DNA of 64,000 nucleotides from Candidatus Woesearchaeota archaeon. Its GTDB lineage: Archaea > Nanobdellota > Nanobdellia > Woesearchaeales > B29-G15. Of this stretch, positions 1,235 to 42,121 are shown piece by piece. Numbering within the stretch: the stretch's first letter is position 1; every line of letters starts with the position of its first letter. The stretch is from assembly GCA_017610005.1 (NCBI GenBank), contig JAFCCU010000001.1, positions 80,371 to 144,370 on the forward strand, in the 5' to 3' direction. The position numbers were made by a program, and so were the translations under genes. The notes under the pieces are model-generated. The model did no database searches. It saw only the letters and a list, made by a program, of their open reading frames with translations, and was not told where the DNA came from.

Positions 1235-1957
1235 CTATTTTGCTATTTCCCACATCAAATCAAAATACTTTTTATAAGATTCTGCTAATCTCTCATTGAA
1301 TATTTGGATTACTAATGGAGGTTTACTATAAAAGAACATTGCAACTTCTTTCCCACAGGCATGGGTAGAAATATTAGAATTAAATTTTTCAGGTAAAAAT
1401 TTTGCAGCTGTGAAAGGCATTTTATTTAAGAGTTTGATTCTAGTTGTTGCATTTTCGTTGTAAATATGATTCATAACTACCTTTCTTTTTATTCTTTCTT
1501 TGTGAAAGTGAGGAATTTCAAATTTTATAAAATCATCAACTGCTTTTTTTGGAACGCCCCAGACTCTAATTTCATCATTATAATCTAAAAACCCATAAAG
1601 AACAGACATTAATGCTCTAACTCCTTCTCTAACAACCGCCTCTCCACGTTTTTCCCTACATTCAGAAAGTAAATTTAATTGAGGTAAATGTTTTTTGATT
1701 AATTGTTCTTTTTCTTGAATAAACCTTAATAGATTATTTGGTGAAGCTGCTTCAAAATATTTAGTTTCATATCTTGTAGTGTATGCAACAAGCCCTTTTT
1801 TTACAAGCCTTTCTAGAACTTCATAAACATTACTCCGATTAACTTTACTTTTTTTTGCAACCTCTCCTGCTGTTGCTAAACCTATTTCAAGCAAGGTTAA
1901 GTAAACTTTGCCTTCATTAGGTGAAAAACCAATTTCTTCGAAGAATCCTGGATCCAT
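1235..1957 (-). CDS. TrmB-family transcriptional regulator (N-terminal wHTH plus C-terminal effector-like domain)
   Basis: N-terminus EIGFSPNEGKVYLTLLEIGLATAGEVAKKSKVNRSNVYEVLERLVKKGLV matches the TrmB wHTH pattern. 240 aa. Divergent from the tagged-gene array. Confidence 0.65.
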   Translation of the reverse strand: MDPGFFEEIGFSPNEGKVYLTLLEIGLATAGEVAKKSKVNRSNVYEVLERLVKKGLVAYTTRYETKYFEAASPNNLLRFIQEKEQLIKKHLPQLNLLSECREKRGEAVVREGVRALMSVLYGFLDYNDEIRVWGVPKKAVDDFIKFEIPHFHKERIKRKVVMNHIYNENATTRIKLLNKMPFTAAKFLPEKFNSNISTHACGKEVAMFFYSKPPLVIQIFNERLAESYKKYFDLMWEIAK

Positions 1958-5005: not shown

Positions 5006-6224
5006 TTCAGTAAGGGATAAGTTGGATCACTTAGTTAGTAGTGCAAGTGATCTTTTATCTTCTCCAATTACAAAGGATATTACACTTCCAATTGATGAGT
5101 ATCATCTTGCAAATCCTATTAGGGTTGCACCTTCAGGATCATTAACAATTCTTGGAGGCACAGTAATTCACAGAGGCCTTAAATCTGGGATTATTGCAGA
5201 AGGCCCAATTTTTATAAAAGGAGAAGAGGAAAATGAAGTTCTCTTTCCCTCAAAAAATAATAAAACTGGGGCTCCTGGAATTTTAATTAGCGGAGAAGCT
5301 GCTAAAAGTTCAGAATTAAAACATTTAATCATAGGTGGGGGGAATGATCCAATTTTACATCGATATAGGATTAAAGGCTTAAATGGATTTATAGGAGATT
5401 CTGCGATTAATGTTGTTGATTCAAAAGCCAAATTGGAGGATGTGCAAATTGAAGACTGGAGAGGGGTTTCTTCCATCAGTTTTTTAAGATCAAAAGGAGA
5501 AATGACAAGAGTGCAAGTCCTGAGAGGAGGAGACATTTCAAATGCTCCAAAGTACAATGGTGCAGGGATTAGTATCCACCAATCTACTGTAAATATAGAA
5601 AATGGTTTAATTAGGTTGGTGGAAGGACAAGGGCTTATTGCAGTTGAAAGTGCAGTTTTTATAGAAAATATTGATGTTACAGAATGTCTAGGCGCAGGAA
5701 TTGTTTATTCAAGATCTTCTGGGGCAATTTTGGGTGGAAATTCCCGACAAAACGGAATAGGTATATTTGTCTATGAGGGGTTTGATTTTAATATTAAAAA
5801 TTTTGTTATCAAAAGAAACAAAAAATCTGGCGTAGTTCTTGTTTGCCCTCAAGAAGTCGTGTTGACTGAGTGTCCAATCAGATCAAATGGAAGAGCAAAA
5901 TATGGGGGAGGGGTTTATTTAGATTTAGGAAAAGAAGGCACAAGCAGAGCTGAAATTCTTGGATGTGAAATAATTGGAAACTCAGCAAAATGTGGTGGAG
6001 GAGTTGTAATAAAAGGAATTGGAAATGGTACTTATAGTTTTGAAGGGACAATCATTGATAGGAATACTGTAACAGAAAAAGTAGGAGGAGTGCTCTTTGA
6101 AGCAAGTAAGATTGGAAATTTAGAGGAATTATTTAATGGGACTATGGGCGAAGAGAACATCCCTACTAAGTTTGGAGTAGAAGTAGGAATTACTGGAGGA
6201 TTTGATTATGGGCCGTACAAATAA
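4992..6224 (+). CDS. Tagged family member 4: N-tag (DSVRDKLDHLVSS) plus parallel beta-helix protein
   Basis: Repeated GGGVYLD, CGGGVVIKG and VGGVLFEAS turns, Gly/Asn/Ile-rich. Overlaps member 3 by 14 nt. Confidence 0.65.
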   Translation: MPENDSVRDKLDHLVSSASDLLSSPITKDITLPIDEYHLANPIRVAPSGSLTILGGTVIHRGLKSGIIAEGPIFIKGEEENEVLFPSKNNKTGAPGILISGEAAKSSELKHLIIGGGNDPILHRYRIKGLNGFIGDSAINVVDSKAKLEDVQIEDWRGVSSISFLRSKGEMTRVQVLRGGDISNAPKYNGAGISIHQSTVNIENGLIRLVEGQGLIAVESAVFIENIDVTECLGAGIVYSRSSGAILGGNSRQNGIGIFVYEGFDFNIKNFVIKRNKKSGVVLVCPQEVVLTECPIRSNGRAKYGGGVYLDLGKEGTSRAEILGCEIIGNSAKCGGGVVIKGIGNGTYSFEGTIIDRNTVTEKVGGVLFEASKIGNLEELFNGTMGEENIPTKFGVEVGITGGFDYGPYK

Positions 6225-9087
6225 AGATTCAGTAAGAAAGGATTTAGATGATTTAGTTAGTCTCCCTCCTATTGCTCAACCTTCTAAAGATAATATAGCT
6301 AGTAGTCCTCATGTTACTCCACCATATCAAAAGAAAAATTTTTTTAAAAGATATCCAAAAATTTCTACAGCATTGGCAGTTGGGACAGTGGGATTATTGC
6401 TCTGGGGAACTTTTGGCATTATGAAAAGGTTAAGCCAAACTAATTTAATAAACCTCCCAGCAGAAACTTATGAGGTTGACCCATATGTAAGAACAGAAAA
6501 TGAATTACAGGACCTTACAACTCAAGTTCATAATTTTAAAACAGGAATTTTATCAGGAACAGTAACAGAGGCAAGTTATAATTCTCTTCTCAGCCAAATC
6601 AATTTCAAACCAGAATACCAAGAATTAACAAAGGGACTTGAAACTGCGTGGTTTGATGGAGTAACTCTACCTGGTTATCTTGCTGACCTACAAACTGCAA
6701 GAGACCATTTAGAAGCTGATGATATTAACGCTACAAATTTGGCTATTGATTCGCTTGAACAAAGATTGCAAGAAGATATTGGAGAACATCCAAATTTATT
6801 AACAATCCAATCTGAAATAACACAATTAAGAGAATTAACTATTCCATATTCTATTCTTGAAAATAGATTTGAAGCCCTAGATGAAATGGTTGATGATGAC
6901 AACCTCAAAAGTGCATTAGTTTTCTCATCAACATTACTTACAGATATTCAATTATTTATTAATCAAAAGGACTACCTCCCTGCTAAAGTTTTATTGCAAG
7001 AAGCACAATCTTACCAGTTAAATTCAATTGAGATTCCCATTGGGGAAGGGGGCCTAATTGCCTTAAAAAATCAAGCTGAAGGGGGGCGTTACGAAGATGT
7101 GCTTGAACAATTTGAATCCTTATATCAATTTTTATCAATGAGCGAATCCCCTGAGCTTGTTGCTCTTGCCCTAGAAACAGGTTCATTCTTTTTTGAGGGT
7201 TATCTTGTCCCCATGAATCGAGCAATAGTGGGATCAATATATCAAGACTTATTTCCAGCTAACAACTTTGATAGGGCAAGGGAAATGACTGATTCTATGG
7301 TGGAAGAAGTAAGGGCATTTAGACAAGAATATAATTTTGGAATATTAAACACTTTTGCTCAAGAACTGGACCAATTAGTTGATTCAATCAATTCCGCTGA
7401 AGAAGAATACTTGAGGGTCGAAGCATTAGGTGATGTTGTTCAAACTGTGGAAATGGTTTATGCATTATCTAATGCAGGGAATTATGATTTGGCTTATGAA
7501 CGATTTCAAGAGGCAGAAACAGAGTTACTTAAAATTAATACAATAGATGCAATCACCCTTAGAAAAAATATGAGAACTTTTGCAGAGGCAAATTTTTTAA
7601 GAGACGTTTTAACAAGGGCGCAGGGATCAATTGGTGAATTATTTGCTGAAGGGGAAGTCATTAATGCCTTGCAAGCAAATTATAATTTGGAGAAAGAATT
7701 GGGCAAAATAGAAGATGGCTCAGAGATAAGAAGTTTTAGGGATCAAATGGTGGAAGCAAGTGGTGCCCAAAGGGCTTCAATTATTAGCGCTTATTCAAGG
7801 AAAATATGGGCAGACACTGGAAATCATGATATTTCTCTTTCCATTAGACAAAGAAGTATGTGGACGAATGTGGACGGAGTTCCAAAAGCAGTATCTTTAT
7901 TCTTGCCCGGCATGGTTGCAGTTTCTCCTGGTGAGTCTCATGTTATTTTAGGTAATCTTCTATCTGAATCCTATTTATCAGATCCAAATAGATCTGGATA
8001 TATCTTTAACCCTTATATGTTTAAAAATTTTGTAATCGCTGATGCTGATGGGTCTCTTAGGAATAATGAGATAAATATTATTGCGTCTCTTTTTAGCAAT
8101 TTGGTTAAAAGAAGTATTGGTAGAGATGTTGTAACTTATTACAATTGGCAAGAAGGAGCCTTATTTGGTGACTTGGATATTCCTGAGATTTCCTGGGAAA
8201 GTGAAAATTCGTTTTGGATGGCAGCAGGACTTAATAGATATTTAATTACATTTAATCCTGAAAATAATTCTATTGTTGACATTGTGGAAGAACATTACGG
8301 TCGTGACTGGAATTATTTTGATTTGGGGGATAAAGATCACATTGAAGAGATTTTAACAGTTAACCCAGATAATTGGGATATTGATTTAGAAGATATTGAT
8401 GGTTCTAAAGAGATGATCGATCTGGGAAGGCAGTTTGGTGCTTCTTTGGCTATATTAAAATTTTATGATGCTAAGAGATTGGCTGAGGCAATTGTGGCCT
8501 ATGATGGCCAACCCGGCCTTAGTACTGCGGAAATAAACACAATAGAACGGGCTTCTTATGAATTAGAAAAAATAATAATGCCTAATCTTAGGTTCCTTAG
8601 CGCATTTAACCAAGGCACCATTTACCCAAACATTGAACAGAGACAAGATGGTCTTTATTCAATAATTGGTTCCAGAGAAATTGAGCTTTTTGATGGAACT
8701 CCTTGCAGGTATGGGGTTTCCCCTGATGCCTCAAGAGTTGCAATTGTAAGAATGACAAATGAGGGGTGGTATTTTTCTGATTTTATTGTTGTTGATATTG
8801 ATGGGAGGGACCGTGTTGATAACTCCGCAATTCTAAATATGATAAACCAAGTTGAGGATAGCAGGGAAGGGGAAGCTTCGTGTGATGTTATTCAATTTGT
8901 ACCATTTGAGTGGGTCGATAATGATACGATTAGGGCAAATTATCCAAGAAGTGTGTCAGATGTGTGTTTAATAGATGTTAATAGAGATAATCAAATTGTT
9001 TACTTTATAGACCCAGTTTATACAAATAAGGAGTGGACTGAAAGAGAGATAAGAGACGAAATGGGGGCCAATTACCCTGGGAATTAA
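6202..9087 (+). CDS. Tagged family member 5: 961-aa type-II membrane protein. Cytoplasmic N-tag, signal-anchor TM, large helical/mixed ectodomain.
   Basis: NKDSVRKDLDDLVSLPP tag. KKNFFKRYPK followed by hydrophobic ISTALAVGTVGLLLWGTFGIM, giving N-in topology. C-terminus ...EMGANYPGN. Confidence 0.7.
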   Translation: MIMGRTNKDSVRKDLDDLVSLPPIAQPSKDNIASSPHVTPPYQKKNFFKRYPKISTALAVGTVGLLLWGTFGIMKRLSQTNLINLPAETYEVDPYVRTENELQDLTTQVHNFKTGILSGTVTEASYNSLLSQINFKPEYQELTKGLETAWFDGVTLPGYLADLQTARDHLEADDINATNLAIDSLEQRLQEDIGEHPNLLTIQSEITQLRELTIPYSILENRFEALDEMVDDDNLKSALVFSSTLLTDIQLFINQKDYLPAKVLLQEAQSYQLNSIEIPIGEGGLIALKNQAEGGRYEDVLEQFESLYQFLSMSESPELVALALETGSFFFEGYLVPMNRAIVGSIYQDLFPANNFDRAREMTDSMVEEVRAFRQEYNFGILNTFAQELDQLVDSINSAEEEYLRVEALGDVVQTVEMVYALSNAGNYDLAYERFQEAETELLKINTIDAITLRKNMRTFAEANFLRDVLTRAQGSIGELFAEGEVINALQANYNLEKELGKIEDGSEIRSFRDQMVEASGAQRASIISAYSRKIWADTGNHDISLSIRQRSMWTNVDGVPKAVSLFLPGMVAVSPGESHVILGNLLSESYLSDPNRSGYIFNPYMFKNFVIADADGSLRNNEINIIASLFSNLVKRSIGRDVVTYYNWQEGALFGDLDIPEISWESENSFWMAAGLNRYLITFNPENNSIVDIVEEHYGRDWNYFDLGDKDHIEEILTVNPDNWDIDLEDIDGSKEMIDLGRQFGASLAILKFYDAKRLAEAIVAYDGQPGLSTAEINTIERASYELEKIIMPNLRFLSAFNQGTIYPNIEQRQDGLYSIIGSREIELFDGTPCRYGVSPDASRVAIVRMTNEGWYFSDFIVVDIDGRDRVDNSAILNMINQVEDSREGEASCDVIQFVPFEWVDNDTIRANYPRSVSDVCLIDVNRDNQIVYFIDPVYTNKEWTEREIRDEMGANYPGN

Positions 9088-15849: not shown

Positions 15850-16580
15850 TCACTCAGGCACAACCACTTGCTCCCAAAGCACCTTAAAAAATTCTTTATA
15901 TGTTTGTGCAGCAATTTCACTTTTTATTTGAATAATGAGCGCTGTTTTGTGCCAGAAAGTTAAGATTATTTCATCTCCACAAATTGAAGTAGTCATATTT
16001 GGAGAAAATTTTCCTGGAATATATCCTGCGCTAGTATAATCCATTTTGTTTAGCATTTTAATTCTAGCAGTATTATCCTTAGTGTAAATATGAAGCATCT
16101 TTACTTTGGCTTCAATTCTCTTTTTATGCCATTTTGGAATTTCATACTTTAAAAATGCTGGATTATTTGCAGGAGGACCACCAAAAACATAAATTGGATC
16201 TTTTTTCTTAAGCCACCCAGAATTAATATTCATAAATGCTCTTGTCCCTTCGTAAACATGAGTATGCCCTTGTTTTTCAGCCATCCCAGATAAAACCTCC
16301 ATTTCAGGAAGTATTCTAGCTATTTTTCCTCTTTCTCTTTAACATACCTTAAGATATCTTTAGGGGGCGCCGCTTCATAATACTTTGTTTGATCTCTTTC
16401 AATATAATTTACAAGTCCTTTTTCAACAAGTCTTTGTAGTGAGTCGTAAGTATTAGTTCTATGAACATGACTTTTTTTTGCAATTTCTCCTGCAGTTGAA
16501 ATTCCTGCCTCAAGTAATGCCAGATAAAGTTTGCTTTCATTTGCAGAAAGACCAATTTCAGTAAGGATTGTTTCATCCAT
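15850..16580 (-). pseudogene. TrmB-family regulator paralog disrupted by a frameshift (two ORFs, 16320-16580 and 15850-16302, in different frames)
   Basis: The N-terminal wHTH ORF aligns with the intact TrmB at 1235-1957 and continues in another frame (…KEKEEK / IARILPEMEVLSG…). The shift is one missing A in an A-run near 16310. Confidence 0.55.
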
Positions 16581-24758: not shown

Positions 24759-26282
24759 TTGTATTATTTTATGACGCTAAATGTAATCTTCAACACCCAA
24801 ATAAAAGGGGGTTCAGGTAAGACTTCTACACTAGTTGAACTTCTATTTGCATTATCTCAAAGATATAAAACAGGAGTAATTGATATGGACGCTCAAGGAG
24901 CTATGGGATCAACTCTCCTAGGGAGGGAAATCAAATGCTTAAGACCATCTGAATACTTGGCTCCTGAAAAAGTAACAATGGCTGACCCTCAAGTATTTAG
25001 ACTTGTATCAAAAGGGCAAAGAATTACGTTTCAAGTTCCTAAGGTTGAGACAAGCGTTGCCTTGTTCCCATTAGGCCATTTTAGAGATCATGAAGATAGG
25101 ATTTGCGAGTTAGGGGAAGCATTAGACCAAATGGATGATCCTGATTTCTTAATAATTGATTCTTCAGGTATGGATGATATTGAAAATACATTAGCAAATT
25201 CAATAGATCCTCTTAGGGCAGTTTATGGAGGGGATATTAATTTATTTCCATTAAATGTCTCGACTCCATTTTCAAACATTACTTCAATGGGTTTTACTAG
25301 AACAACTCAGGCAATTGAAGAACTTATAGCAAGGGGATTTTCACCGAATAGAATTTTCCCAATTTCAGTATTGAATAAAACCCCTATCAGAGATAGGTCT
25401 ACTTATGATTTAGTATCTTCAGAATTTGTAGATAAGTTAATTGATCAAGGTTTTTTAAGCAAATATCCTGAAGATGATTGTACAGGAAATTCCCCAAGAA
25501 AAGTTACTCTTGAAGGCCAAAGCGCATTATCCATTTTATTCCCAGAGATTGCAAATTTGCAAGACGGAGATTTTTCTCTATTTTTAAGAGATGGACCAAA
25601 GTATTACTTTTACCCCCATCTATTGGATGCATTAAAAATTAGAGGTATTGAGATCCCAATAAAAGATGAAAAAATTCAGATGTTTTCGTCAGGAATAACA
25701 AGATTTATTGGATATGTTTCTGGATGTAGTCAGGTGAGGGGAAAAAATTCCCATAATATTCATTTGGAATCTTTTGATCTTGATGCAATATCAGAAGATC
25801 CACAATTGGGGTATTTACTTGAAAGATATAAGGGAGCATATTCTGGTATATCCTTTCCAAGTATTCACTCTGAAAGACAAGAGTTCGGTTCGCGTTTTAC
25901 TGCTCCAAGCATGGATTTTATTTCAATTAAAGCACCTCTTAATCAAAATAAATTTAGAAGACTGTGCCATTTTGTAGAGGCAACCCTCGCACCAGGAGAA
26001 ATAGCAACTTTTGAGGGGCCCAACCATCCAAATCGGTTTATAATTAGCTTAGATCGTGAGCAATTTGACTCTTACATCCATTGTGAAGGGGGTGAATATT
26101 CAAGAGGAATACAAGGGATCCCCTTCTGCGCAATAGCATATTCTGAAACTACTCCGGGCAGGTTGCACGTTGGATTCTTGAATCAGACGTCACTAAGAAT
26201 AGATTATAATATGGAATGCCAACCATTTTATAGAAATGTTATTGAGCCTGTTTTAAAGACAATTGCAGGCTTGTTGCCCTAA
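24759..26282 (+). CDS. ParA/MinD-like P-loop ATPase fused to a ~250-aa C-terminal domain of unknown function
   Basis: Deviant Walker A NTQIKGGSGKTST and a hydrophobic-D Walker B FLIIDSSG. The C-terminal half has no recognised motif. Confidence 0.5.
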   Translation: MYYFMTLNVIFNTQIKGGSGKTSTLVELLFALSQRYKTGVIDMDAQGAMGSTLLGREIKCLRPSEYLAPEKVTMADPQVFRLVSKGQRITFQVPKVETSVALFPLGHFRDHEDRICELGEALDQMDDPDFLIIDSSGMDDIENTLANSIDPLRAVYGGDINLFPLNVSTPFSNITSMGFTRTTQAIEELIARGFSPNRIFPISVLNKTPIRDRSTYDLVSSEFVDKLIDQGFLSKYPEDDCTGNSPRKVTLEGQSALSILFPEIANLQDGDFSLFLRDGPKYYFYPHLLDALKIRGIEIPIKDEKIQMFSSGITRFIGYVSGCSQVRGKNSHNIHLESFDLDAISEDPQLGYLLERYKGAYSGISFPSIHSERQEFGSRFTAPSMDFISIKAPLNQNKFRRLCHFVEATLAPGEIATFEGPNHPNRFIISLDREQFDSYIHCEGGEYSRGIQGIPFCAIAYSETTPGRLHVGFLNQTSLRIDYNMECQPFYRNVIEPVLKTIAGLLP

Positions 26283-27055: not shown

Positions 27056-27448
27056 TTAATCGAGTTTATAAGGGCTCATAGCGTCAAGTTTTTCTGTTAA
27101 GCTTTTTTGTCCAAGTGTAGGCGTTAGATCAATTTCTGGTACTTTTAATGGATTTCTTGTAATTGCTGCAATTTGTATGTTTAATTGAGTTTCTCTTTGT
27201 TCAGTGAAGATTTCTTGTTGAGCTAGATTTGCATTTCTTTTCCTTTCACTTTCTTCTAATTGTGTAGCTGTCTCGAAATAAGATTGCCGATATGCCTCCT
27301 TTGCCATAAATGAGCCAAAAGTGCGTGGACCAGGACACCCATACAATGCATCAGATATTCCCAATTCAATTGCTTGTTCTTCCATTCTATTGTCTTGTTC
27401 TATTCTAATACCTCTTGGATCAAGTGGTAGATACGGATTGAATTCCAT
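27056..27448 (-). CDS. Hypothetical protein
   Basis: 130-aa ORF. No motif. Confidence 0.3.
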   Translation of the reverse strand: MEFNPYLPLDPRGIRIEQDNRMEEQAIELGISDALYGCPGPRTFGSFMAKEAYRQSYFETATQLEESERKRNANLAQQEIFTEQRETQLNIQIAAITRNPLKVPEIDLTPTLGQKSLTEKLDAMSPYKLD

Positions 27449-27716: not shown

Positions 27717-28244
27717 TTAATTCTTAGCATTTACAATAGGGGATGCAACACTTCTGTACCATCTAATTAATCTTTGTAAGGGTTTAAAATTATTAACTAA
27801 GATTCCATTTAAATGGTCAAACTCATGCTGCACAAATTGGGCTAATCTCCCTTTCATCTCAGCTTGAAACTCATTTCCGTCAATATCTTGGAAAGTTACA
27901 TTGACTTTATATGCTCTTAATTTAAATCCACTATATCCTATTTGACAGCTTTCATAGATTGGATACCTAACGCCCTGAAGTCTCACTTCTGGATTTACCA
28001 TAGTGATAGTGTCTTCGAGGGTAGGTGCTTCAGAAAACCAGGTAATATTCGCAGGTTTATCATTAACAACAACAAATAATCGCTTTAAATACCCTATTTC
28101 AGGCCCAGAAGCACCCCCTAAATCATATTTTCTAATTAATTCCTTAAGATAATCTACTTTTCCATATACCTTATCTGTTTCGAAATCTACTTCTTCGCAG
28201 ATTGTATGTAATTGTTCTAGTGTTGCTAATCCCATATTTCTCAA
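27717..28244 (-). CDS. def: Peptide deformylase homolog
   Basis: Motif 3 QHEFDHLNG, an EGCLS-like ESCQIGYSG, and a GΦGΦAAPQ-like GASGPEIGY. Confidence 0.65.
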   Translation of the reverse strand: MRNMGLATLEQLHTICEEVDFETDKVYGKVDYLKELIRKYDLGGASGPEIGYLKRLFVVVNDKPANITWFSEAPTLEDTITMVNPEVRLQGVRYPIYESCQIGYSGFKLRAYKVNVTFQDIDGNEFQAEMKGRLAQFVQHEFDHLNGILVNNFKPLQRLIRWYRSVASPIVNAKN

Positions 28245-28439
28245 ATTTTTAATTGAATCCTCACTTTTAAACTTTTTTATTGATTTTTTTAATTCTTGTG
28301 TATATTGAAAAGAATTACCTAGACTTATATTCTTTAAAATATATATTAAAATAGACTATAGTGTTCTAAAATATATAATATAAAACTATCTTTCTAGACA
28401 TTATTTTTAATAATATTGTTTTTTATAATATAATAAAAC

Positions 28440-28500
28440 CTTTAATAAATAATTAAAAATATTAGCCTTAATTATAATTAAAAGATTTAATTAAAAATTA
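28440..28500. repeat. Extremely AT-rich tract 3' of the integrase containing the palindrome TAATTAAAAGATTTAATTA
   Basis: Same palindrome class as the array at 29780-29995. Confidence 0.5.
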
Positions 28501-28546
28501 ATAATATTAACCATTCCTCAAAAACTAGTTTCTCGTCTAAAAACTA

Positions 28547-29353
28547 TCATAAATCATCAAGTGGACTTCTTAATTTTTTTAGCTCACTAGTACTTACTTG
28601 AGTATAAATTTGGGTAGTCTGGAGGTTAGAATGGCCCAATAATTCCTGTATTTTACGGATATCTGTACCGTTTTCAAGCATGTGGGTAGCAAAAGAATGG
28701 CGCATTGTATGGGGTGTTACATGCTTCATAATACCTGCTTTTCTAGCAGTTCTGGCAATTATTTCTTGGATATTTCTAGGGCTTATTGGCCCGTTGTGGC
28801 CAGGAAATAGATAAATTGATTTATTTTCTTTCAAATACTCTTCAATTTCGGTGCGAAGACATTCTGAGAGCAGTATTAGGCGATCTTTAGCACCCTTACC
28901 ACTACGAACCCATCCAATACCTTCTGATAATTCAAGTTCATTTACCTTAAAATTGCATAATTCAGATACTCTTATGCCTGTTGAATAAAGAAATTTGATT
29001 ATTAATTTGGTTTTAAGATAATTTGCAGCTTTTATTAAATTTTTAATTTCTTGTTTAGATAAGACAGTTGGGAGTTTTTTTGGGGCTTTTGGAGTTTTTA
29101 ATGTAACAACATTTTTTTTTAAAATTTCATCAAAATAGAATTTCAATGCAGCTTTAACTAATGCGATAGTTCTTACACTTGAATTTTTTTCATGCATTAA
29201 GTAAGCAATGTAATTTTTAACATCAGTTTCAGAAATCTCATTTTCAGTTTTTTTAATAAAATGCAGAAATTTTACATTATGATAAAAATAGGATTTTATT
29301 GTTTCTTTAGAAAAACCCCTTAATTTTAATTCTGTTATTAAATTTTCAAGCAT
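28547..29353 (-). CDS. Tyrosine recombinase/integrase (XerA/XerC-like)
   Basis: C-terminal HTMRHSFATHMLENGTDIRKIQELLGHSNLQTTQIYTQV carries the R…HxxR…Y catalytic signature. N-terminal SAM-like core-binding domain. Confidence 0.8.
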   Translation of the reverse strand: MLENLITELKLRGFSKETIKSYFYHNVKFLHFIKKTENEISETDVKNYIAYLMHEKNSSVRTIALVKAALKFYFDEILKKNVVTLKTPKAPKKLPTVLSKQEIKNLIKAANYLKTKLIIKFLYSTGIRVSELCNFKVNELELSEGIGWVRSGKGAKDRLILLSECLRTEIEEYLKENKSIYLFPGHNGPISPRNIQEIIARTARKAGIMKHVTPHTMRHSFATHMLENGTDIRKIQELLGHSNLQTTQIYTQVSTSELKKLRSPLDDL

Positions 29354-29779
29354 TTTTCACCTCTTTTATAGCTCCAAGCGTGATAACACGCGTGTAACAG
29401 TCATTATACGAACGTTTAGTATTTAATACTTTCGTTTGTCGTCGGAGAAGCCATTCTAGCCCCATATTTACGCTAAAAAGGTTAGGGTAATGGAATAAAA
29501 GAAGGGTTGAAAAGATGTGTTGTTTTGAAAAATAATCAAAATTGTAAGAAACCAAAAAAAGTGGGTTTTTTGATAATTTCATTAAAAAGTAGAATTTCTT
29601 AATTATCATCAAATTTTAACAAAATTGGAAAAAATAAAAATAAAACAACAAACTTCTGTATTTCGAACTTTTGTATAAAACAACAAAAAGTGAGATCTTT
29701 GGAAAAAAAGTATTAAAACAAGTATATAATTCTTTTCAATATTGTAAAAAATATAATTGCTTTCTAAATACCTATGATC

Positions 29780-29995
29780 AAAAGATTTAACCAAAAGCTA
29801 AAGCTTTTAATAATAAGTTCATTGTAGAAAGTTTTAAGAAATAATCAAAGGTTTTGATTATTAAATTATTTATAAAAATAATCAAAAGATTTGATTAAAA
29901 GTTAAATATTTTCATACTATAAACTTTTAAAAAATAATCAAAGGTTTTGATTAAAATAAAAAGCTAAATAATTAAAGGTTTTTGTTAAAAGTTAA
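29780..29995. promoter_or_regulatory. Array of at least five copies of the palindrome (A)TAATCAAARRTTTTGATTA(A), spaced ~40-50 bp apart in AT-rich DNA upstream of the integrase
   Basis: aataatcaaaggttttgattattaaa, aataatcaaaagatttgattaaaag, aataatcaaaggttttgattaaaat, plus degenerate copies gatcaaaagatttaacc and aattaaaggtttttgtt. Confidence 0.6.
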
Positions 29996-30211
29996 TAATT
30001 ATTTAAAATTTCTTCCGAAATTTTACTGGGGTTTAATACCCTAGACTTCAGTCCGAAATTTTTAATCCCAAAAATCCATCACTCGGACCTATCCCCAACT
30101 TAAAAGTTGGGTTATTGCGGCCCCCGAAAAAAGATGGATTTTTGTTATAACTATTAAAAATATTTGATTCTAATCTACTAATATTTTAAAAAAGAATCTT
30201 CTTAAAAACAT

Positions 30212-31156
30212 TTACATAACTAAAACAGGTTCAGGAACTGTGTATTTAGATTTATTAGGAGTTTCTGCTTGCAATTCCTCAAGAATTGGCACTAAGTGAT
30301 TCTGAACAGCATTGTCAATGTATCTCCTGCTCAAAGAAATATTTCCTGCAGCAATTGGGGCCATAGTTTTCTTAATTTGTTTGCAATAAGCATCTTGATT
30401 ACGAGGATCTTGAGTTATTGTAATTAGTCTTTGGAGATTTTCTACTGTAATAAAGTCTGATTCTCCCTTTAGGGCCGCTTTCTCTCGTAATTCAGTTAAA
30501 CCCCCTGTTGCACCTTGTTTAGCAAGATATTCTAGATCAAATAAATCTGTTCCTTTAATTACACCATCCCACTCAATCATTCGTGAGACACATGCACTAA
30601 GTTTGTCTGCATACAATTCGTCAATAGGGGTTACTAGTAAACTTCCATATTCTCCTTCAATTCGTTCTGAGTCTCCTACAGCCACATTTTTTATTTCAAC
30701 AACAACTCGAGAAGCCCCTAAATGAGATTCTCCATGATCTTTAACAAGAAGATCATCTAGACCATATTCCCGCAAAGGCATATGGTCTAAGTCGCTTCCC
30801 TGTAAATCTTGCTCTGCAAGAGCAAATGAAACTCTAAGAAAATCAGGTTCATTTTTTTGTACTTCAATCTTCAGTGGCCAAAAAACTGGCCCAGCATCTG
30901 GTTTATGTGATTGTACGATATCTATTGGTTTAGTAGTTTCATCAATAATTGATTGAGCAATTGTATCAAAATCTGCACAAGCATAATCTAGATCAGCTGA
31001 ATACCTTGGAGAACCGTGAACAAAATGCATCGCTCCTCCACCACGAAGGACAAGGGCTTCAGAGAGTATGGGATCAGTCGCAAATTTACTTAAGATTGTT
31101 TCTAAAATTCTATCCCTTGATTCAAGCTTTATCCGATGGATTTCTTGCTGTTTCAT
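30212..31156 (-). CDS. Nucleotidyltransferase of the AbiEii / DUF1814 family
   Basis: LVLRGGGAMHFVHGSPRYSADLDY matches the GGTAL…RxSxDID NTase signature of AbiEii toxins. 314 aa. Confidence 0.55.
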   Translation of the reverse strand: MKQQEIHRIKLESRDRILETILSKFATDPILSEALVLRGGGAMHFVHGSPRYSADLDYACADFDTIAQSIIDETTKPIDIVQSHKPDAGPVFWPLKIEVQKNEPDFLRVSFALAEQDLQGSDLDHMPLREYGLDDLLVKDHGESHLGASRVVVEIKNVAVGDSERIEGEYGSLLVTPIDELYADKLSACVSRMIEWDGVIKGTDLFDLEYLAKQGATGGLTELREKAALKGESDFITVENLQRLITITQDPRNQDAYCKQIKKTMAPIAAGNISLSRRYIDNAVQNHLVPILEELQAETPNKSKYTVPEPVLVM

Positions 31157-31230
31157 TAAGAAAAACTTAGGATTTCATCATTTATAAGTCTTTTGGTTTG
31201 TTTGTTACTAATCAGTAATAACAGATCAAT

Positions 31231-33660
31231 TTAATCCTCTCCAAGGTAAAGAACTTGGCTCATTTCTTTTATTATTGCTCCCGTATCCCTGCTCTCCTGG
31301 TCAACTATCTCTAATACATTTCCCCTTTGGTGGACTACTTTTAAGCCATTACTTGATAACTGTTCTTTTAAAAGTGAATACCCTTGTTCAATCATTGGTC
31401 CAAATTCCTGTGTTAAAATGCCTGTTTGCCAAAAAAAAGCTTTGGCATTTCGTTGAAGATGCTGCCTCTGTGAACTTAAGAATAAAAAGTCTTCAGTGGA
31501 CAAGTTTTGGGCATTAATTAACTCTTTAATATCCTCCGGTATCCTCTTGTCTAACCTGGCTATTGCTTGTTCATATCTAGTTGTTTCAAACCCTTCAACT
31601 TCTTCTGCAGCAACAGCCAGCACTGGGTTGCCATGATAAGCAAGAGCGAATTCTTTTTGAAAAAATGTACCTTCGTCTCTTTTAACAATTGTTAATAAGT
31701 CTCTTTTAATCTTGCGTTTAAGTTCAGGTTTTGTTAAGAGTAATTCTTCTACTCCCTCTTCTGCCAATAAAACAATCTCTTTTAATGCAACCCTATACTG
31801 ATTAATAATCTTTCTTCTTTGATCCCAATCCTTGCTAAATTCTTCATGTAAACCTCTAAATTCATCTCGAGAAACACCTGTATAATTAAATAAGTCTGAA
31901 TAATCATGATTGAGTTTTTCAGTGTATAAAAAACCAATAAGTAAGTTTTCTGCAATTGGTTCTAAATATCTAATAAATGTGAGCGAGTCATTTCCCCTAT
32001 CTAATGAGGTTCTGTAAGCCTCAAAAAGAGCTTTTGTTTCAGGGACTCTTTTAACAATAACATCTTCAATAAAAAGTGGCCAAGGAACGTAAGCAAGGTG
32101 GCGTGAGCCTGCAGATTCTTCTGTTGGAAGTTGCCTTAATTTTTTCCCGTCTTCTTTTAATTTTTTCTTTTTAGGATTTAAGATAATATCAGGAATTCTA
32201 TGCCTTCCATATCGTTTATAAAACCTCTTATCAATAAGTTCTGTAAGTGCTTCTCTTCTTAGTGTGAGATTTTTCAAGGGAATGCCAGTTAGATTTGCTA
32301 TTTCTTGGAGGCTTTGTTTTTGAGGTTCAATCTTATTATCTACTGCAATCATGATTGCAGTATCTTCTATAGCGTATTGGCCGATAAGATTTATTGTTTC
32401 AGTATCACCAAGCTCAGCAAGAAGACTTAGATAGTTTAGAAAGTCTCTAGGTAAACCTTTTTTAAAAGTGATGTCCAGTTGTTTGCAAATAGCTTCAAGA
32501 TTTCTGCGTTTAAATTGAGGAATACAATTAAATGCAATATAAAGTGGATCAATAATAATTGCATCAGCAAATCTTTCTTTGACAAAAAATTCACTATCTC
32601 CATTTTTTATTGAAGACTTTCTTGGCCCTCTATTGTGCAAATCTGCCCAAGAATTATCTTTTTGCAATTTTGTTTGTATTTTTTTTAATTCCTCAAAGTC
32701 GTAGCCATGGTAATGAAGAATAAATGAAAAAGGTGCTTCTTTATGCCAAATGTCTCTGGCCCAATCCCTCATTTCCATAGTAGAAATTACAGCCTTTAGA
32801 TTTTGTTTTTGGCGTTCATGGTGGGTTGCAAATATCAATGAGAGTGCAGGGAAAATTGAGGGAGAATATGTACTAATATTTTCCCCTAAACTTTCAATAG
32901 CTTGGGAAAATTCATCATATATGGTGCCAAACCTTTCATAAACTCGATCTTTTTTTGCACCTTTTCTTTTTAGGGCTTTTTGAAATTCAATAAATCTTGC
33001 TTCAACTGCTTCATCAGTTGCTAAGAATTGGTGCACTTGAAACTCTACTCCTTCTGCTTTAAGAATTCCTTCTAAAGGGGTTGTTGTTCCAAGATGGCCT
33101 TCATATTTTCCATCTCTTTTAATTATCAATGCATTATGGCTCATATGGCCTTTTGAATGTTGCAACATAACATTTGCCCATTCAAATATTTCTTTTTCTG
33201 TGGCCCCTTCAAGCTCTGGAGTCAATAAAATGGCTTTAGGTATAAAATACTCATTAAACCATTCTTTAAAAACAGGATTTTCTAAAGAAGGAGGAGAATC
33301 ATCACTAAAGAAAGCAAATTCAGTATCCATATAAATTCGATTTTTAGATAAGAGGTTTACATCCTCTTCAAGTACAGATATTGTGTTTGGGGCAAAATTT
33401 ATACCTGTCCTGCTCCATTCTAGGATATTTTGGCTGGGATTTTCAGCTACTTTTTTTAATAGTTCTGGATTAATTTGAACATATCTTTCAAGGCTTCCTA
33501 ATTCCCAGGATAACACTTTAGCAGCACTCTTTAAGTTTGGAGGAATTGAGCTTCTTAACGTGCAAACCGGGCCAGTTTCATCTCTAAATGTAAAAAGAGC
33601 CTCTCTTCTGTCTTCTCCTTTCACTTTATGCACAGTGATGGAGTCATTAATAATTGGCAT
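31231..33660 (-). CDS. Large hypothetical protein (809 aa) with possible DEDD-type exonuclease-like motifs
   Basis: RIYMDTEF (DxE-like) and GQYAIEDTA (YxxxD-like), but the spacing is atypical. Otherwise no recognised domain. Confidence 0.4.
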   Translation of the reverse strand: MPIINDSITVHKVKGEDRREALFTFRDETGPVCTLRSSIPPNLKSAAKVLSWELGSLERYVQINPELLKKVAENPSQNILEWSRTGINFAPNTISVLEEDVNLLSKNRIYMDTEFAFFSDDSPPSLENPVFKEWFNEYFIPKAILLTPELEGATEKEIFEWANVMLQHSKGHMSHNALIIKRDGKYEGHLGTTTPLEGILKAEGVEFQVHQFLATDEAVEARFIEFQKALKRKGAKKDRVYERFGTIYDEFSQAIESLGENISTYSPSIFPALSLIFATHHERQKQNLKAVISTMEMRDWARDIWHKEAPFSFILHYHGYDFEELKKIQTKLQKDNSWADLHNRGPRKSSIKNGDSEFFVKERFADAIIIDPLYIAFNCIPQFKRRNLEAICKQLDITFKKGLPRDFLNYLSLLAELGDTETINLIGQYAIEDTAIMIAVDNKIEPQKQSLQEIANLTGIPLKNLTLRREALTELIDKRFYKRYGRHRIPDIILNPKKKKLKEDGKKLRQLPTEESAGSRHLAYVPWPLFIEDVIVKRVPETKALFEAYRTSLDRGNDSLTFIRYLEPIAENLLIGFLYTEKLNHDYSDLFNYTGVSRDEFRGLHEEFSKDWDQRRKIINQYRVALKEIVLLAEEGVEELLLTKPELKRKIKRDLLTIVKRDEGTFFQKEFALAYHGNPVLAVAAEEVEGFETTRYEQAIARLDKRIPEDIKELINAQNLSTEDFLFLSSQRQHLQRNAKAFFWQTGILTQEFGPMIEQGYSLLKEQLSSNGLKVVHQRGNVLEIVDQESRDTGAIIKEMSQVLYLGED

Positions 33661-33745
33661 TATCTGCAGAGAGTACCGGCAGGTTTTTAAAGTTTTTTAT
33701 TTTATTTACTAATTAGTAGTCAATATTTAGAAAAATGGTTAAAAA

Positions 33746-35350
33746 ATGGCAAATGTTGTAAATTATTTCCCATTTCCTGTATTAAGGCCTCATCAAGCAG
33801 AGTTTTTAGAGGCTATTGTTCAAGCTTTTGATTCTGGGTATAAATATGTCCCTCTTGAAGCACCAACTGGTTTTGGAAAATCTCCCTTAGCAGTGGCTTT
33901 GGGGAATTATTACGGAGATCAAGGGAATGGGACCCATATCTTAACCTCTACAAAACAGCTTCAAACACAATATCTTTCAACTTTTCCTAATGATGTTAGA
34001 ACAGTCAAGGGGAGGGCAAATTTTACTTGCAATGCAGTAAATGTTTTAATTGATCAAGCAAAGGTTCCTACTTCTAGGGCCCCTTGTATTACTGATCCTA
34101 AATATGATTGCTCTTTAAAGCCAGGACTTGCAGGAGAGGATTTAGCAGCAATTTCAGCTAACCGTGGGCCTTTATTTTGGAAATCAAAAGAACACTGTAC
34201 CTATTGGGCTCAAAAAACTGGCGCTATGAATTCCAAAATTGCACTCCACAATTATCCTTACTTTATTGGTGAAACAGAACATGTTGGAGATTTTGGAAAA
34301 CGTGACTTACTAATTTGTGATGAGGCTCATAACATTGAATCTGAGATTATGAAATATGTGGGGTTAAAAGTTGATGCACGCACACTTAAACAATGTGGAC
34401 TTAGAATTGAGGGTGATGTTGAAGAGGCAGTTAGGTATAGAACTGTCTTAGATACTCTTGCTGATAATTTAAGGCAATTAGTTGATATTGAAGTTGATCC
34501 AGAAAGAGCTAATGAACTGGAACAACTTTTAGGTAAAACCCAAATGGTTGCTGATGGGATTGATTGCAATCCTAAAAATTGGGTTGTGCTTCATACTAAT
34601 GGAGGAATTGAATTTAAACCTTTACAAATTTCTAATTATACTAAAGACCTTTTGTTTAACAAAGGAGAGCGTGTTTTGCTTATGTCTGCAACAATACTTA
34701 ACATAAATATGCTCCAGAGGTATCTAGGACTTGACCCTAGAGAGGTTGCACCTATTCTTAAGGTGCCTGCTCAGATATCCCCTGACCAGCGAAAATTTCA
34801 TTTAAGATATGTTGGGAGTATGAGTAGAGAATCTAGAACTGAAACAATGCCAAGATTAATTGAAGAAGTAGATAAAATAATTACAGAACATCCTCATGAA
34901 AAAGGAATAATTCATTCAGTTTCTTACCAAAATGCAAAAGAAATTTATTCTGGAGTTTCGAGTCATTCAAGAAGCAGACTCTTGTTTCCAACCTCTTCGC
35001 AACAGATACCTCGCAATATGGAGATCCACACAACTTCATCTGATCCAACTGTTCTTCTTTCTCCAAGTATGAAAGAAGGAGTAGACTTAGTAGAAGCTCT
35101 ATCGAGGTTTCAAGTGATGGTAAAAGTTCCCTATCCTTTCTTGGGAGATCCCCAAATTATGAGGAGGATGAAAAATGATAGATCTTGGTACGAATGGATG
35201 ACTCTTGTAAGTTTGATTCAAACAGCTGGTCGTTCTGTGAGGTCTACTGAGGATTGGGCAGAAACCTTTATTTTAGATTCTGCTTTTGATAATCTAAAAA
35301 ATTCTAGGTTAATTCCTAAGTGGTTTAAGGAAGCTTATGTTTCTGGTTAG
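33746..35350 (+). CDS. XPD/Rad3-family SF2 DNA helicase with an FeS-cluster domain
   Basis: Motif I EAPTGFGKS, DEAH box LICDEAHN, four Cys (FTCNAV, APCITDPKYDCS, HCTYW) in the FeS-domain position, motif VI QTAGRSVR. 534 aa, like the short archaeal XPDs. Confidence 0.75.
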   Translation: MANVVNYFPFPVLRPHQAEFLEAIVQAFDSGYKYVPLEAPTGFGKSPLAVALGNYYGDQGNGTHILTSTKQLQTQYLSTFPNDVRTVKGRANFTCNAVNVLIDQAKVPTSRAPCITDPKYDCSLKPGLAGEDLAAISANRGPLFWKSKEHCTYWAQKTGAMNSKIALHNYPYFIGETEHVGDFGKRDLLICDEAHNIESEIMKYVGLKVDARTLKQCGLRIEGDVEEAVRYRTVLDTLADNLRQLVDIEVDPERANELEQLLGKTQMVADGIDCNPKNWVVLHTNGGIEFKPLQISNYTKDLLFNKGERVLLMSATILNINMLQRYLGLDPREVAPILKVPAQISPDQRKFHLRYVGSMSRESRTETMPRLIEEVDKIITEHPHEKGIIHSVSYQNAKEIYSGVSSHSRSRLLFPTSSQQIPRNMEIHTTSSDPTVLLSPSMKEGVDLVEALSRFQVMVKVPYPFLGDPQIMRRMKNDRSWYEWMTLVSLIQTAGRSVRSTEDWAETFILDSAFDNLKNSRLIPKWFKEAYVSG

Positions 35351-35586
35351 GATTTTTATTTGGTATAAGAGTGATCTAACTGAGTTTCTATTAGCGTTTG
35401 CACCCCCTATATGAAACGTTCCCAGGCACTGCCCTTTCTTCATTATAGTTTACAAGCCCAACAGTGCCCTTGATCTTTAATACTCTTATTAAAAAAACAT
35501 TTAGGTAATATTAACCAAAAAGAACAGCCACGTAAATGGCAACCCCTTTTCTTAATCCATAAAGAAAAAAGATTTAGCCAAAAGTA

Positions 35587-41963: not shown

Positions 41964-42121
41964 AATTGCCAGAGGAATTCATTATTTATAAACGTTTTGG
42001 TGTTTTACTACTAACAAGGAACAATCTTTTATTGCTTAAATTTAGTGAAAATCGAAGAGTTTAAATACTAGTTATACGAAAAGTATTACGTTATCATACT
42101 ATGGAAAAAAGGTGATTTTTC

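Follow-up and report, generated by a model that had tools for sequence, protein, structure and literature searches.

The locus described here most closely resembles the XerA/dif systems of Pyrococcus abyssi, Thermoplasma, and Sulfolobus (PMC2958812, PMC3646895, PMC8371274), which possess a single XerA of ~270-290 amino acids (aa), composed of a SAM-like N-terminal domain and a catalytic domain, and a 28-bp dif site, in which two 11-nucleotide (nt) inverted repeats are separated by a 6-nt spacer (PMC8371274) and the inner positions, ATAA-N6-TTA(T/C), are those of bacterial dif. In the Thermococcales, dif is flanked by AT-rich conserved sequences and is not adjacent to xerA (PMC2958812); a single xerA/dif module is present in some archaea (PMC5357621), and in the XerS/difSL system of streptococci and lactococci and the XerH/difH system of epsilon-proteobacteria the recombinase gene likewise stands beside its own site as one unit. 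In Thermococcus kodakarensis, dif lies between two AT-rich, A-tract-rich sites that are bound by TrmBL2 and stall SMC, forming a chromosomal boundary, and dif-proximal boundaries have been reported in several euryarchaea (PMC11840125).

The DNA analysed here was a 64-kb stretch of contig JAFCCU010000001.1 from a Woesearchaeota-type (DPANN) archaeon (hereafter the window), with a mean guanine-plus-cytosine (GC) content of 34.3% and a compact gene layout; it was compared with 11 related loci or genomes of the Woesearchaeota/Nanoarchaeota type, labelled L001, L002, L006, L085, and so on. It encoded an XerA-type tyrosine recombinase, preceded by a probable dif site in its own promoter region and enclosed on both sides by extremely AT-rich DNA with conserved palindromes. 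What is new here is that, in a DPANN archaeon, xerA is linked with a promoter-borne dif-like site and set in an AT-rich cradle whose palindromes are conserved. The best reading of its sequence is that of a chromosome dimer-resolution module, of which the palindromes would, by analogy and on a modest balance of probability, be conserved protein-binding elements with an architectural or accessory role. The features of the locus are as follows.

28245-28546, no strand: downstream AT-rich spacer, 15.2% GC
~28430-28448, no strand: degenerate downstream copy of the palindrome
28475-28493, no strand: sister palindrome TAATTAAAAGATTTAATTA, 54 nt past the xerA stop codon
28547-29353, minus strand: xerA, gene for a chromosomal XerA-type tyrosine recombinase of 268 aa (by Pfam, NCBIfam, structures, and synteny)
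29357-29363, minus strand: Shine-Dalgarno-like GAGGTGA ahead of the xerA ATG, read from the sequence
29387-29414, minus strand: dif-like 28-bp site (11-6-11), CGTTCGTATAA-TGACTG-TTACACGCGTG, 59 nt ahead of the xerA ATG
29420-29428, minus strand: TATA-like box TATTAAATA, putative xerA promoter, 5 nt upstream of the left arm of the dif-like site
29500-30010, no strand: upstream AT-rich spacer, 18.2% GC, within the longest non-coding gap of the window
29729-29745, minus strand: conserved CAAT box ACAATATTGAAAAGAAT in the upstream spacer, matching L001 and L097
29775-29987, no strand: array of five 19-nt palindromes TAATCAAA-N3-TTTGATTA, three perfect and two degenerate
29842-29860, 29879-29897, and 29935-29953, no strand: perfect copies of the array
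29775-29793 and 29969-29987, no strand: degenerate copies of the array
30020-30143, no strand: GC-richer structured element, ~41% GC, at the distal end of the spacer

The gene at 28547-29353 had been called a tyrosine recombinase in an earlier reading made from the sequence only (the sequence-only reading), and this was borne out by Pfam, its minus-strand product possessing PF13495 (the SAM-like N-terminal domain) and PF00589 (the catalytic domain). The product scored 271.4 bits on the NCBIfam equivalog model NF040815 (recomb_XerA_Arch), for which the cut-off is 220, residues 4-260 being aligned with profile positions 2-261 of 263, and the NCBIfam models for XerC, XerD, XerS, and integron integrases all scored under their own cut-offs. 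The nearest solved structures were those of P. abyssi XerA (4a8e, E 1.5e-58) and T. acidophilum XerA (5hxy), and full-length homologues with 57-74% identity numbered in the thousands in Woesearchaeota/Nanoarchaeota assemblies. The catalytic set R-K-H-R-H/W-Y, picked out by eye from the translation rather than by structural alignment, was present as GIRVSEL (R), GKGAKDR (K), HTMRHSF (H and R), LGHSN (H), and QIYTQV (Y). The product was 62-66% identical to its counterparts in the relatives, a range like those of Lon (65-69%) and PAC2 (51-66%), which are encoded nearby, and the backbone ArgRS-Lon-(MscS)-PAC2 ... xerA ... methyltransferase was conserved in the relatives. Given the equivalog score and the ArgRS-Lon-PAC2 synteny, the gene, although it had been read as an integrase, does not encode one belonging to a mobile element, and by the same sequence comparisons it is a housekeeping chromosomal XerA that was vertically inherited. 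Such genes should accordingly not be annotated as 'phage integrase', nor their surroundings as prophage. A contig scan with XerA was unusable for synteny, being dominated by generic recombinase motifs (mostly from bacteria and Thermococcus, with at most 52% identity). An 88-aa open reading frame (ORF) at 29346-29612 was rejected as a gene; it is of low complexity, overlaps the dif-like site and the promoter, and showed no similarity to the 83-aa ORF ahead of xerA in L002.

Ahead of xerA, two inverted arms of ~11 nt, symmetric at 7 of 11 positions, with a 6-nt spacer were observed at 29387-29414, and the inner positions read ATAA-N6-TTA, as is typical for dif. Scored against the family consensus GTTCGYATAA-N6-TTATRCGAAC (20 scored positions), this was the only site in the 64 kb to reach 16/20 or more. 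The runners-up scored 14, which is background, so that the second att copy or boundary expected for an integrated element was not found in the whole 64 kb. Two weaker candidates were discarded as being at chance level: a sub-threshold distal att candidate at 35361-35385, with the conserved arm oriented wrongly for a simple insertion, and an exact 9-mer of the left arm at 42059-42080. At the same place as in the window, perfect or near-perfect palindromic versions, of the 9-6-9 or 11-6-11 type, were present in L001 (perfect, TTCGTATAA-GATACA-TTATACGAA), L097 (TTCGTATAA-GGTACA-TTATACGAA), and L006 (CTGCGTATAA-GATATA-TTATACGCAG), and L087 also possessed a fully symmetric dif-like site. The left arm, (G)TTCG[CT]ATAA, was found ahead of xerA in 10 of the 11 related genomes; together with a preceding TATA-like box it stood 13-66 nt before the ATG in nine of them and 304 nt before it in L002. 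By comparison of sequences, then, 29387-29414 is probably the recombination site, dif-like and located in the xerA promoter. The proposed 'att/recombination region' thus stands as far as a recombinase with a probable site is concerned, but the palindromes of the region are neither att nor arm sites (see below). A short palindrome, ACACGCGTGT, had been placed directly at the start of the gene (29365-29385); it is present, but at 29386-29395, 33-42 nt before the ATG, where it forms the outer part of the right arm of the dif-like site.

In the alignment of the window with eight relatives, a TATA-like element was located 1-12 nt (mostly 1-6 nt) upstream of the left arm. The TATA spacing in L091 and L095 puts the ATG near +1, and therefore the conserved arm sits between the TATA box and the gene start. 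This position suggests, as far as sequence goes, that XerA binding also regulates its own promoter. A scan for sigma-70 promoters and terminators yielded nothing useful, the method not being applicable to archaea.

The palindromic unit consists of 8-nt arms and a 3-nt centre, the arms being invariant and the centre AGA or GGT, and the arms are 11 bp apart from centre to centre, which corresponds to one helical turn. The sequence-only reading was correct as to the upstream copies, of which it had counted at least five, three near-perfect (in fact perfect) and two degenerate, but their positions are 29775-29987 and their centre-to-centre spacings are 67, 37, 56, and 34 nt, not ~40-50 bp; the pattern TAATCAAARRTTTGATTA that headed that reading has 18 nt, one base short, and matched 0 copies. 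The sister palindrome likewise exists, as TAATTAAAAGATTTAATTA, but not at 28450-28470; it and ACACGCGTGT had been misplaced by 10-25 nt. With up to 3 mismatches, 10 matches were found in the window versus 3.3 expected, a number reached in 0 of 100 shuffles, and 7 of the 10 fell within 28.4-30.2 kb. The palindrome and its sub-words were not common upstream of the genes of the window and were clustered solely around xerA within it, and the proposal that the motif might be a ubiquitous promoter or transcription factor motif thus came out negative at this scale. Perfect copies 1 and 3 lie within a diverged local duplication (29812-29860 versus 29905-29953, 86% identity), in which the 28 flanking bases differed at 7 positions and the 21-nt palindrome at 0 (Fisher p = 0.014).

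When at most 2 mismatches to TAATYAAANNNTTTRATTA were allowed, 6 of 11 loci (the window, L085, L086, L091, L095, and L097) had a related palindrome 31-85 nt past the xerA stop codon. In dinucleotide-preserving shuffles of the same spacers, the mean was 0.39 and the maximum 3 loci, and 0 of 500 shuffles reached 6. The exact ATCA...TGAT form did not occur in the relatives, the related copies appearing once Y/R was allowed at the C/G positions, and L097 also possessed related copies upstream of its dif, collinear with the array of the window. In L086, L091, and L095, the spacer that carries the post-xerA palindrome lies between convergent genes, and the palindrome there is therefore not a promoter operator. 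Taken together, the one-turn spacing of the arms, their preservation in diverged duplicates, and the fixed positions of the copies point to a homodimeric DNA-binding protein.

Outside these genomes, a two-copy pattern of the palindrome had 1 match in the JGI metagenome collection (L089) and 0 in viral contigs. L089 (contig Ga0114950_10112458) is unrelated, and the palindrome is shared by coincidence. At 1-360, this GC-rich, phage-like contig starts with tandem repeats of 24 nt and 48 nt, each with TTTAATCAAATGATTTGATTAAACC, followed by further repeat families, which are probably iterons of a phage origin or packaging site. A BLAST similarity of the array to L087 10669-10727 was discarded as AT-rich noise, and a comparison of 8-mer enrichment between the xerA flanks and other intergenic DNA was uninformative.

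As the sequence-only reading had stated, the recombinase gene is flanked by the most AT-rich DNA of the window, the two 200-nt stretches of lowest GC content being 28308-28507 (11.5%) and 29805-30004 (13.5%). Directly upstream of xerA, 858 nt (29354-30211) are non-coding, more than in any other gap of the window, and 4 of the 8 stretches of 200 nt with the densest A-tracts fall in 29.07-30.07 kb. Similar values were observed for the equivalent spacers of L001 (17.8% GC upstream and 13.2% downstream) and L097 (15.9% and 7.8%). The upstream spacer also carries the CAAT box, 16 of the 17 bases of which are identical to L001 5719-5735, and from which L097 1428-1444 differs at 1 base; in the window, L001, and L097, the box precedes dif by 208-333 nt. 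The pattern of the element in these three genomes was (A/T)CAATATTGAAA(A/T)(A/G)AAT, and TCAATAT-like words also recurred past the xerA gene in the window, L085, L091, and L095. The order palindromes, CAAT box, TATA, dif, xerA is shared by the window and L097, and L001 has the collinear order CAAT box, TATA, dif, xerA without palindromes. Since the positions of the CAAT box and the palindromes are collinear with those in relatives that lack the helicase and PolB cargo found next to the array in the window (see below), the array belongs to the xerA module and not to the cargo.

At the distal end of the spacer, the element at 30020-30143, which includes a 12-bp stem and two AAAATTTCGGA repeats, was predicted to fold stably (z = -4.5 and -4.7 on the two strands; 0 of 200 shuffles were as stable). 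It matched no tRNA or Rfam family, and it was not repeated in the remainder of the window or in the fetched loci of relatives; when the window and 28.2-30.25 kb were searched for tRNAs and Rfam families, only sub-threshold CRISPR-repeat noise was returned. A box C/D small RNA and an intron-containing tRNA were rejected for this element, as there were no D'/C' boxes and no acceptor pairing and the ARAGORN and Rfam results were empty. It could be a plus-strand small RNA whose start follows a TATA-like stretch near 29995.

On the reading of the locus as a dimer-resolution module, xerA would be transcribed from a promoter whose TATA-to-gene-start region holds the dif-like site at 29387-29414. As this site lies inside the promoter region, the same DNA would serve as the recombination substrate of XerA and, probably, as an autoregulatory operator. 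The module sits within an extremely AT-rich cradle that on both sides carries palindromes of the form TAATYAAA-N3-TTTRATTA; local duplication has raised their number to five upstream in this genome, one or two further copies stand downstream of xerA, and a putative homodimeric helix-turn-helix protein would bind them. Its role would most likely be architectural or accessory for the dif region, possibly as a roadblock or boundary around dif of the kind formed by TrmBL2 and SMC in T. kodakarensis; alternatively, the palindromes might be accessory sites that condition XerA recombination or expression. A more specific form of this proposal, in which a dimeric protein bound to the flanks organises the dif region in an archaeon that has no FtsK, either as a topological filter like those of cer and psi or as a TrmBL2/SMC-like boundary, is tentative, and we consider it possible but doubtful.

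Comparison with the described systems places these features as follows. Unlike the dif of the Thermococcales, which is not beside xerA, the dif-like DNA of the window lies within the xerA promoter region; further differences from the archaeal XerA/dif systems are the degenerate right arm, the DPANN lineage, and the conserved flanking palindromes, which have not been described before. The central region of difSL has 11 bp versus the canonical 6 bp of the site in the window, and placement of the site between TATA and gene start, as well as palindrome arrays, are absent from the descriptions of XerS/difSL, XerH/difH, and the individual archaeal xerA/dif module. As in the window, dif of the T. kodakarensis boundary (PMC11840125) stands between stretches of very AT-rich DNA that is dense in A-tracts; in T. 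kodakarensis this DNA is bound by a winged helix-turn-helix protein of the TrmB family with an architectural rather than a promoter function, a family of which genes are also encoded in the window. However, TrmBL2 sites are AT-rich motifs and not sharp 19-nt palindromes, and in the window xerA itself lies between the flanks; the analogy is a functional one only. In plasmid Xer systems (cer with ArgR/PepA, psi with ArcA/PepA), arrays of accessory sites beside the Xer core show how selectivity for resolution could be imposed without FtsK control. Their accessory DNA, in contrast, abuts the core on one side over ~180 bp, whereas the copies in the window lie 360-580 nt upstream and ~900 nt downstream, and no homologues of the cer/psi accessory proteins were identified for this locus.

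Several points weigh against this interpretation. The right arm of the dif-like site is imperfect, and a better dif could lie outside the 64 kb; L087, L091, L086, and L093 have a full site 1-3.6 kb upstream and a half-site alone at the promoter. Because 5 of the 11 loci lack a copy (up to 2 mismatches) within 150 nt past xerA and L001 has none upstream, the palindromic element is not universal. The comparison covered only 11 genomes, in which the motif was spotted by eye before being tested, and the protein that would bind the palindromes is putative. The three perfect copies of the window fit ATCA-N7-TGAT, which is the geometry of the TrmB-type operator known as TGM (TATCAC-N5-GTGATA; PMC4158304). 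This likeness is limited to the C/G variant of the window, and since most copies in the relatives read ATTA...TAAT, it is a lead only.

Neighbouring genes that bear on the other explanations are as follows.

1235-1957, minus strand: TrmB-family protein of 240 aa, with a DNA-binding domain related to that of TrmBL2
16320-16580, minus strand: TrmB-family protein of 86 aa
24759-26282, plus strand: protein of 507 aa, ATPase domain of the ParA/MinD type at the N-terminus, the long C-terminal remainder uncharacterised
27717-28244, minus strand: peptide deformylase homologue (PF01327, E 1e-19), directly downstream of xerA
30212-35350, no strand: cargo of the variable slot, three genes, none of them in the relatives
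30212-31156, minus strand: AbiEii, by database match
31231-33660, minus strand: PolB-fold protein of 809 aa, by AlphaFold2 model
33746-35350, plus strand: phage-type DinG/XPD helicase, matching phrog_2488

That the palindromes are instead ordinary transcription factor operators (TrmB-, PadR-, or Lrp-type) for xerA, for the deformylase gene, or for an unannotated small RNA that would begin near 30027, with no role in recombination or architecture, appears unlikely, though it is the alternative that survives best. Dimeric geometry, conserved arms, and five clustered copies are typical of cooperative regulators, and the array stops just before the TATA-like stretch and the structured element at 30020-30143. 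Candidate regulators are also at hand: the window encodes the two TrmB-family proteins, the larger of which is near TrmBL2 in size (240 versus 264 aa) and had no detected sugar-binding domain, PadR or TrmB genes stand near xerA in L002 and L093, and genes similar to the two TrmB-family ones lie within 6-8 kb of it in these genomes. The xerA TATA, however, is 390-600 nt away from the array and the ATG ~420-620 nt, distances far beyond the usual range of archaeal operators, and in L086, L091, and L095 the conserved copy between convergent genes has no promoter to serve. The motif, moreover, stays with xerA although the downstream neighbour varies among genomes, and neither a homologue nor an Rfam match was found for the putative small RNA.

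As to that downstream neighbour, the deformylase homologue scored below the NCBIfam equivalog cut-offs and occurs in an otherwise archaeal-type genome. A word, AAAGTGAG(G/A), at ~28254-28262 (minus strand) precedes the deformylase gene, as it does the gene at 27056-27448, and recurs 200-300 nt past xerA in several genomes, including L001, L085, and L091; it may be a leader or a variant ribosome-binding site.

Replication termination or partition was considered as a further role for the palindromes, which would then be elements around dif acting as a fork barrier or as a centromere-like site for the ParA-like ATPase encoded at 24759-26282. Their placement on both sides resembles that of Ter sites around bacterial dif, palindrome arrays in repeat units resemble plasmid centromeres, and the ParA-like gene is 2.3 kb from xerA. 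Genes also converge on 26.7-29.4 kb, 22 of the 27 genes to the left being on the plus strand and 11 of the 12 to the right (to 42 kb) on the minus strand, and most relatives have xerA converging with the gene that follows it. Against this, perfect palindromes would not give polar arrest, gene orientation is mixed again past 42 kb, the ParA-like gene is missing from relatives that keep the motif, and we know of no archaeal terminator protein. This role is accordingly regarded as very improbable. The ParA-like gene is followed by a gene for a 115-aa membrane protein, and both are absent from the xerA neighbourhoods of the relatives.

The sequence-only reading had also compared the region with archaeal origins carrying origin recognition boxes (ORB or mini-ORB), and the AT-rich dyads could then mark either the chromosomal oriC or the origin of a replicon that had integrated here, the genes for the PolB-like protein and the helicase having arrived with it. 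Like those origins, the locus has non-coding, AT-rich DNA in which dyad-symmetric boxes recur. No part of the window has a lower GC content than this region, which adjoins the helicase and PolB-fold genes, and DNA of 13.5-18% GC with five palindromes has the makings of an unwinding region, a feature that is not origin-specific. Cumulative GC skew showed a broad extremum at ~26-30 kb, but this is a maximum that follows gene orientation and reverses after 42 kb, and at the 64-kb scale the check was uninformative. No candidate for an Orc1/Cdc6 initiator was found: Lon was the only ORF product of the window with a classical GxxGxGK[ST] P-loop, no Cdc6/AAA initiator was present in the Pfam tables of the ORFs scanned (~1-47 kb), and the gene tables of L001, L086, L087, L091, L093, and L095 listed no Orc1/Cdc6 within ~8 kb on either side of xerA. 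The ORB core is of the TTCCA-N-TGGAAA type; with this consensus and up to 2 mismatches, no match was found in 26.4-30.4 kb (which covers the region at 28.2-30.2 kb), and the window as a whole had 40 matches versus 48.7 expected, that is, no enrichment. Unlike the ORB origins, then, the locus has no adjacent orc1/cdc6, no ORB-like core, and no G-string, and its motif is tied to the flanks of xerA in several genomes, downstream of the gene as well as upstream. The upstream spacer is moreover collinear with those of relatives without the helicase and PolB cargo, and the PolB-like family has no invariant acidic residue in its C-terminal half. The origin is thus less probable again than a role in termination or partition, and the palindromes, whatever their role, are not a replication origin.

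The interval between PAC2 and xerA was variable. In the window it held genes for a GNAT protein, the phage-type helicase, the PolB-like protein, and AbiEii; in the relatives it held a 298-306-aa ORF or genes for PIN, ParE, MazE, PemK, and DUF4258/DUF2283 proteins. The contents differed in every genome while the flanking housekeeping genes were kept, as in L091 (2031-7915), L093 (6177-7900), and L095 (2572-7920), whose slots carried toxin-antitoxin and small ORFan genes. An integrated element or recombination hotspot at 28250-33700 had been proposed, and the adjoining stretch is indeed a variable slot, but its limits differ, the variable segment covering ~29.4-35.6 kb. In Woesearchaeota, the PAC2-xerA interval should be marked as a variable slot for toxin-antitoxin or defence cargo.

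The GC content of the cargo (35-37%) was in line with that of other genes of the window. The helicase matched phrog_2488 over its full length (E 9e-104), with ~30% identity to helicases of large phages, and the type-IV-associated DinG of PADLOC (E 2e-68); its gene is transcribed divergently from that of the PolB-like protein, downstream of which lies AbiEii, and the three may form a defence or replication module. The 809-aa protein had no Pfam, NCBIfam, PHROG, or PADLOC match, and its homologues were few: 1 among 5.8 billion proteins in a word search and, in a profile search, 10 besides itself among 1.84 billion cluster representatives. Its AlphaFold2 model (mean predicted local distance difference test score, pLDDT, 84.7, from a 10-sequence alignment) matched family B DNA polymerases over the full length. 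The residues of the DEDDy exonuclease motif were invariant in the family, and no invariant acidic residue was found in the C-terminal (polymerase) half; as modelled, the protein may be an exonuclease derived from PolB and may belong to a defence or mobile module.

Pairs of dif-like sites were observed near xerA in three relatives, in direct order. In L087 and L088, a perfect site at 6525-6548, 1.45 kb upstream, and a half-site at xerA (~7979-8004) bracket three small ORFs; in L002, sites at 5697-5720 and ~7263-7290, the second after PadR, bracket the 83-aa ORF, xerA, and PadR. These pairs look like Xer-mediated cassette capture of the kind known from integrative mobile elements exploiting Xer (IMEX; CTXphi, TLCphi, and the gonococcal genetic island), which share with the locus a variable cargo beside dif and with L087 and L088 a cargo between a functional or perfect site and a degenerate one. 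In the window, that arrangement was not found. The interval beside xerA-dif is thus a variable slot possibly fed by Xer-mediated capture, which is not demonstrated in the window because no second dif-like site is present there.

The explanation of the palindromes as att or arm-type sites, with 28.25-35.6 kb as an element integrated by the recombinase, for example an IMEX-like one at dif, has in its favour the variable slot with its toxin-antitoxin or defence-type cargo, the bracketing sites of L087, L088, and L002, a phage-type helicase, and a PolB-like protein with ~10 relatives, yet it is the least probable of all, since the window has one dif-like site and a cargo with no recognisable att site or deviating GC content, the conserved arm in the candidate at 35361-35385 and in the relatives is oriented unsuitably for an element simply inserted into a perfect dif, an arm-binding domain is missing from XerA (Pfam showed the SAM-like and catalytic domains alone), and the palindromes flank xerA rather than the cargo and are kept in relatives with other cargo. 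Because of their 3-nt centre and arms unrelated to those of dif, the palindromes are not core sites of a tyrosine recombinase; they are not att core or arm sites.

The locus bears on the question of how archaeal XerA is confined to the resolution of chromosome dimers without FtsK, for which, to our knowledge, the only architectural clue so far has been the protein-bound AT-rich boundary around dif in Thermococcus. In less than 2 kb, an uncultured DPANN lineage holds the recombinase gene, a dif-like promoter site, an AT-rich cradle, and palindromes on both sides, which provides a small synthesisable fragment and a concrete motif for pull-down, electrophoretic mobility shift assays, and in vitro recombination. 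If dif indeed lies between TATA and gene start, XerA would exert direct feedback on its own synthesis, and if the flanks act as a topological filter, XerA would resolve dimers rather than make them. Such a compact cis-architecture would then be a DPANN answer to the control of XerA recombination.

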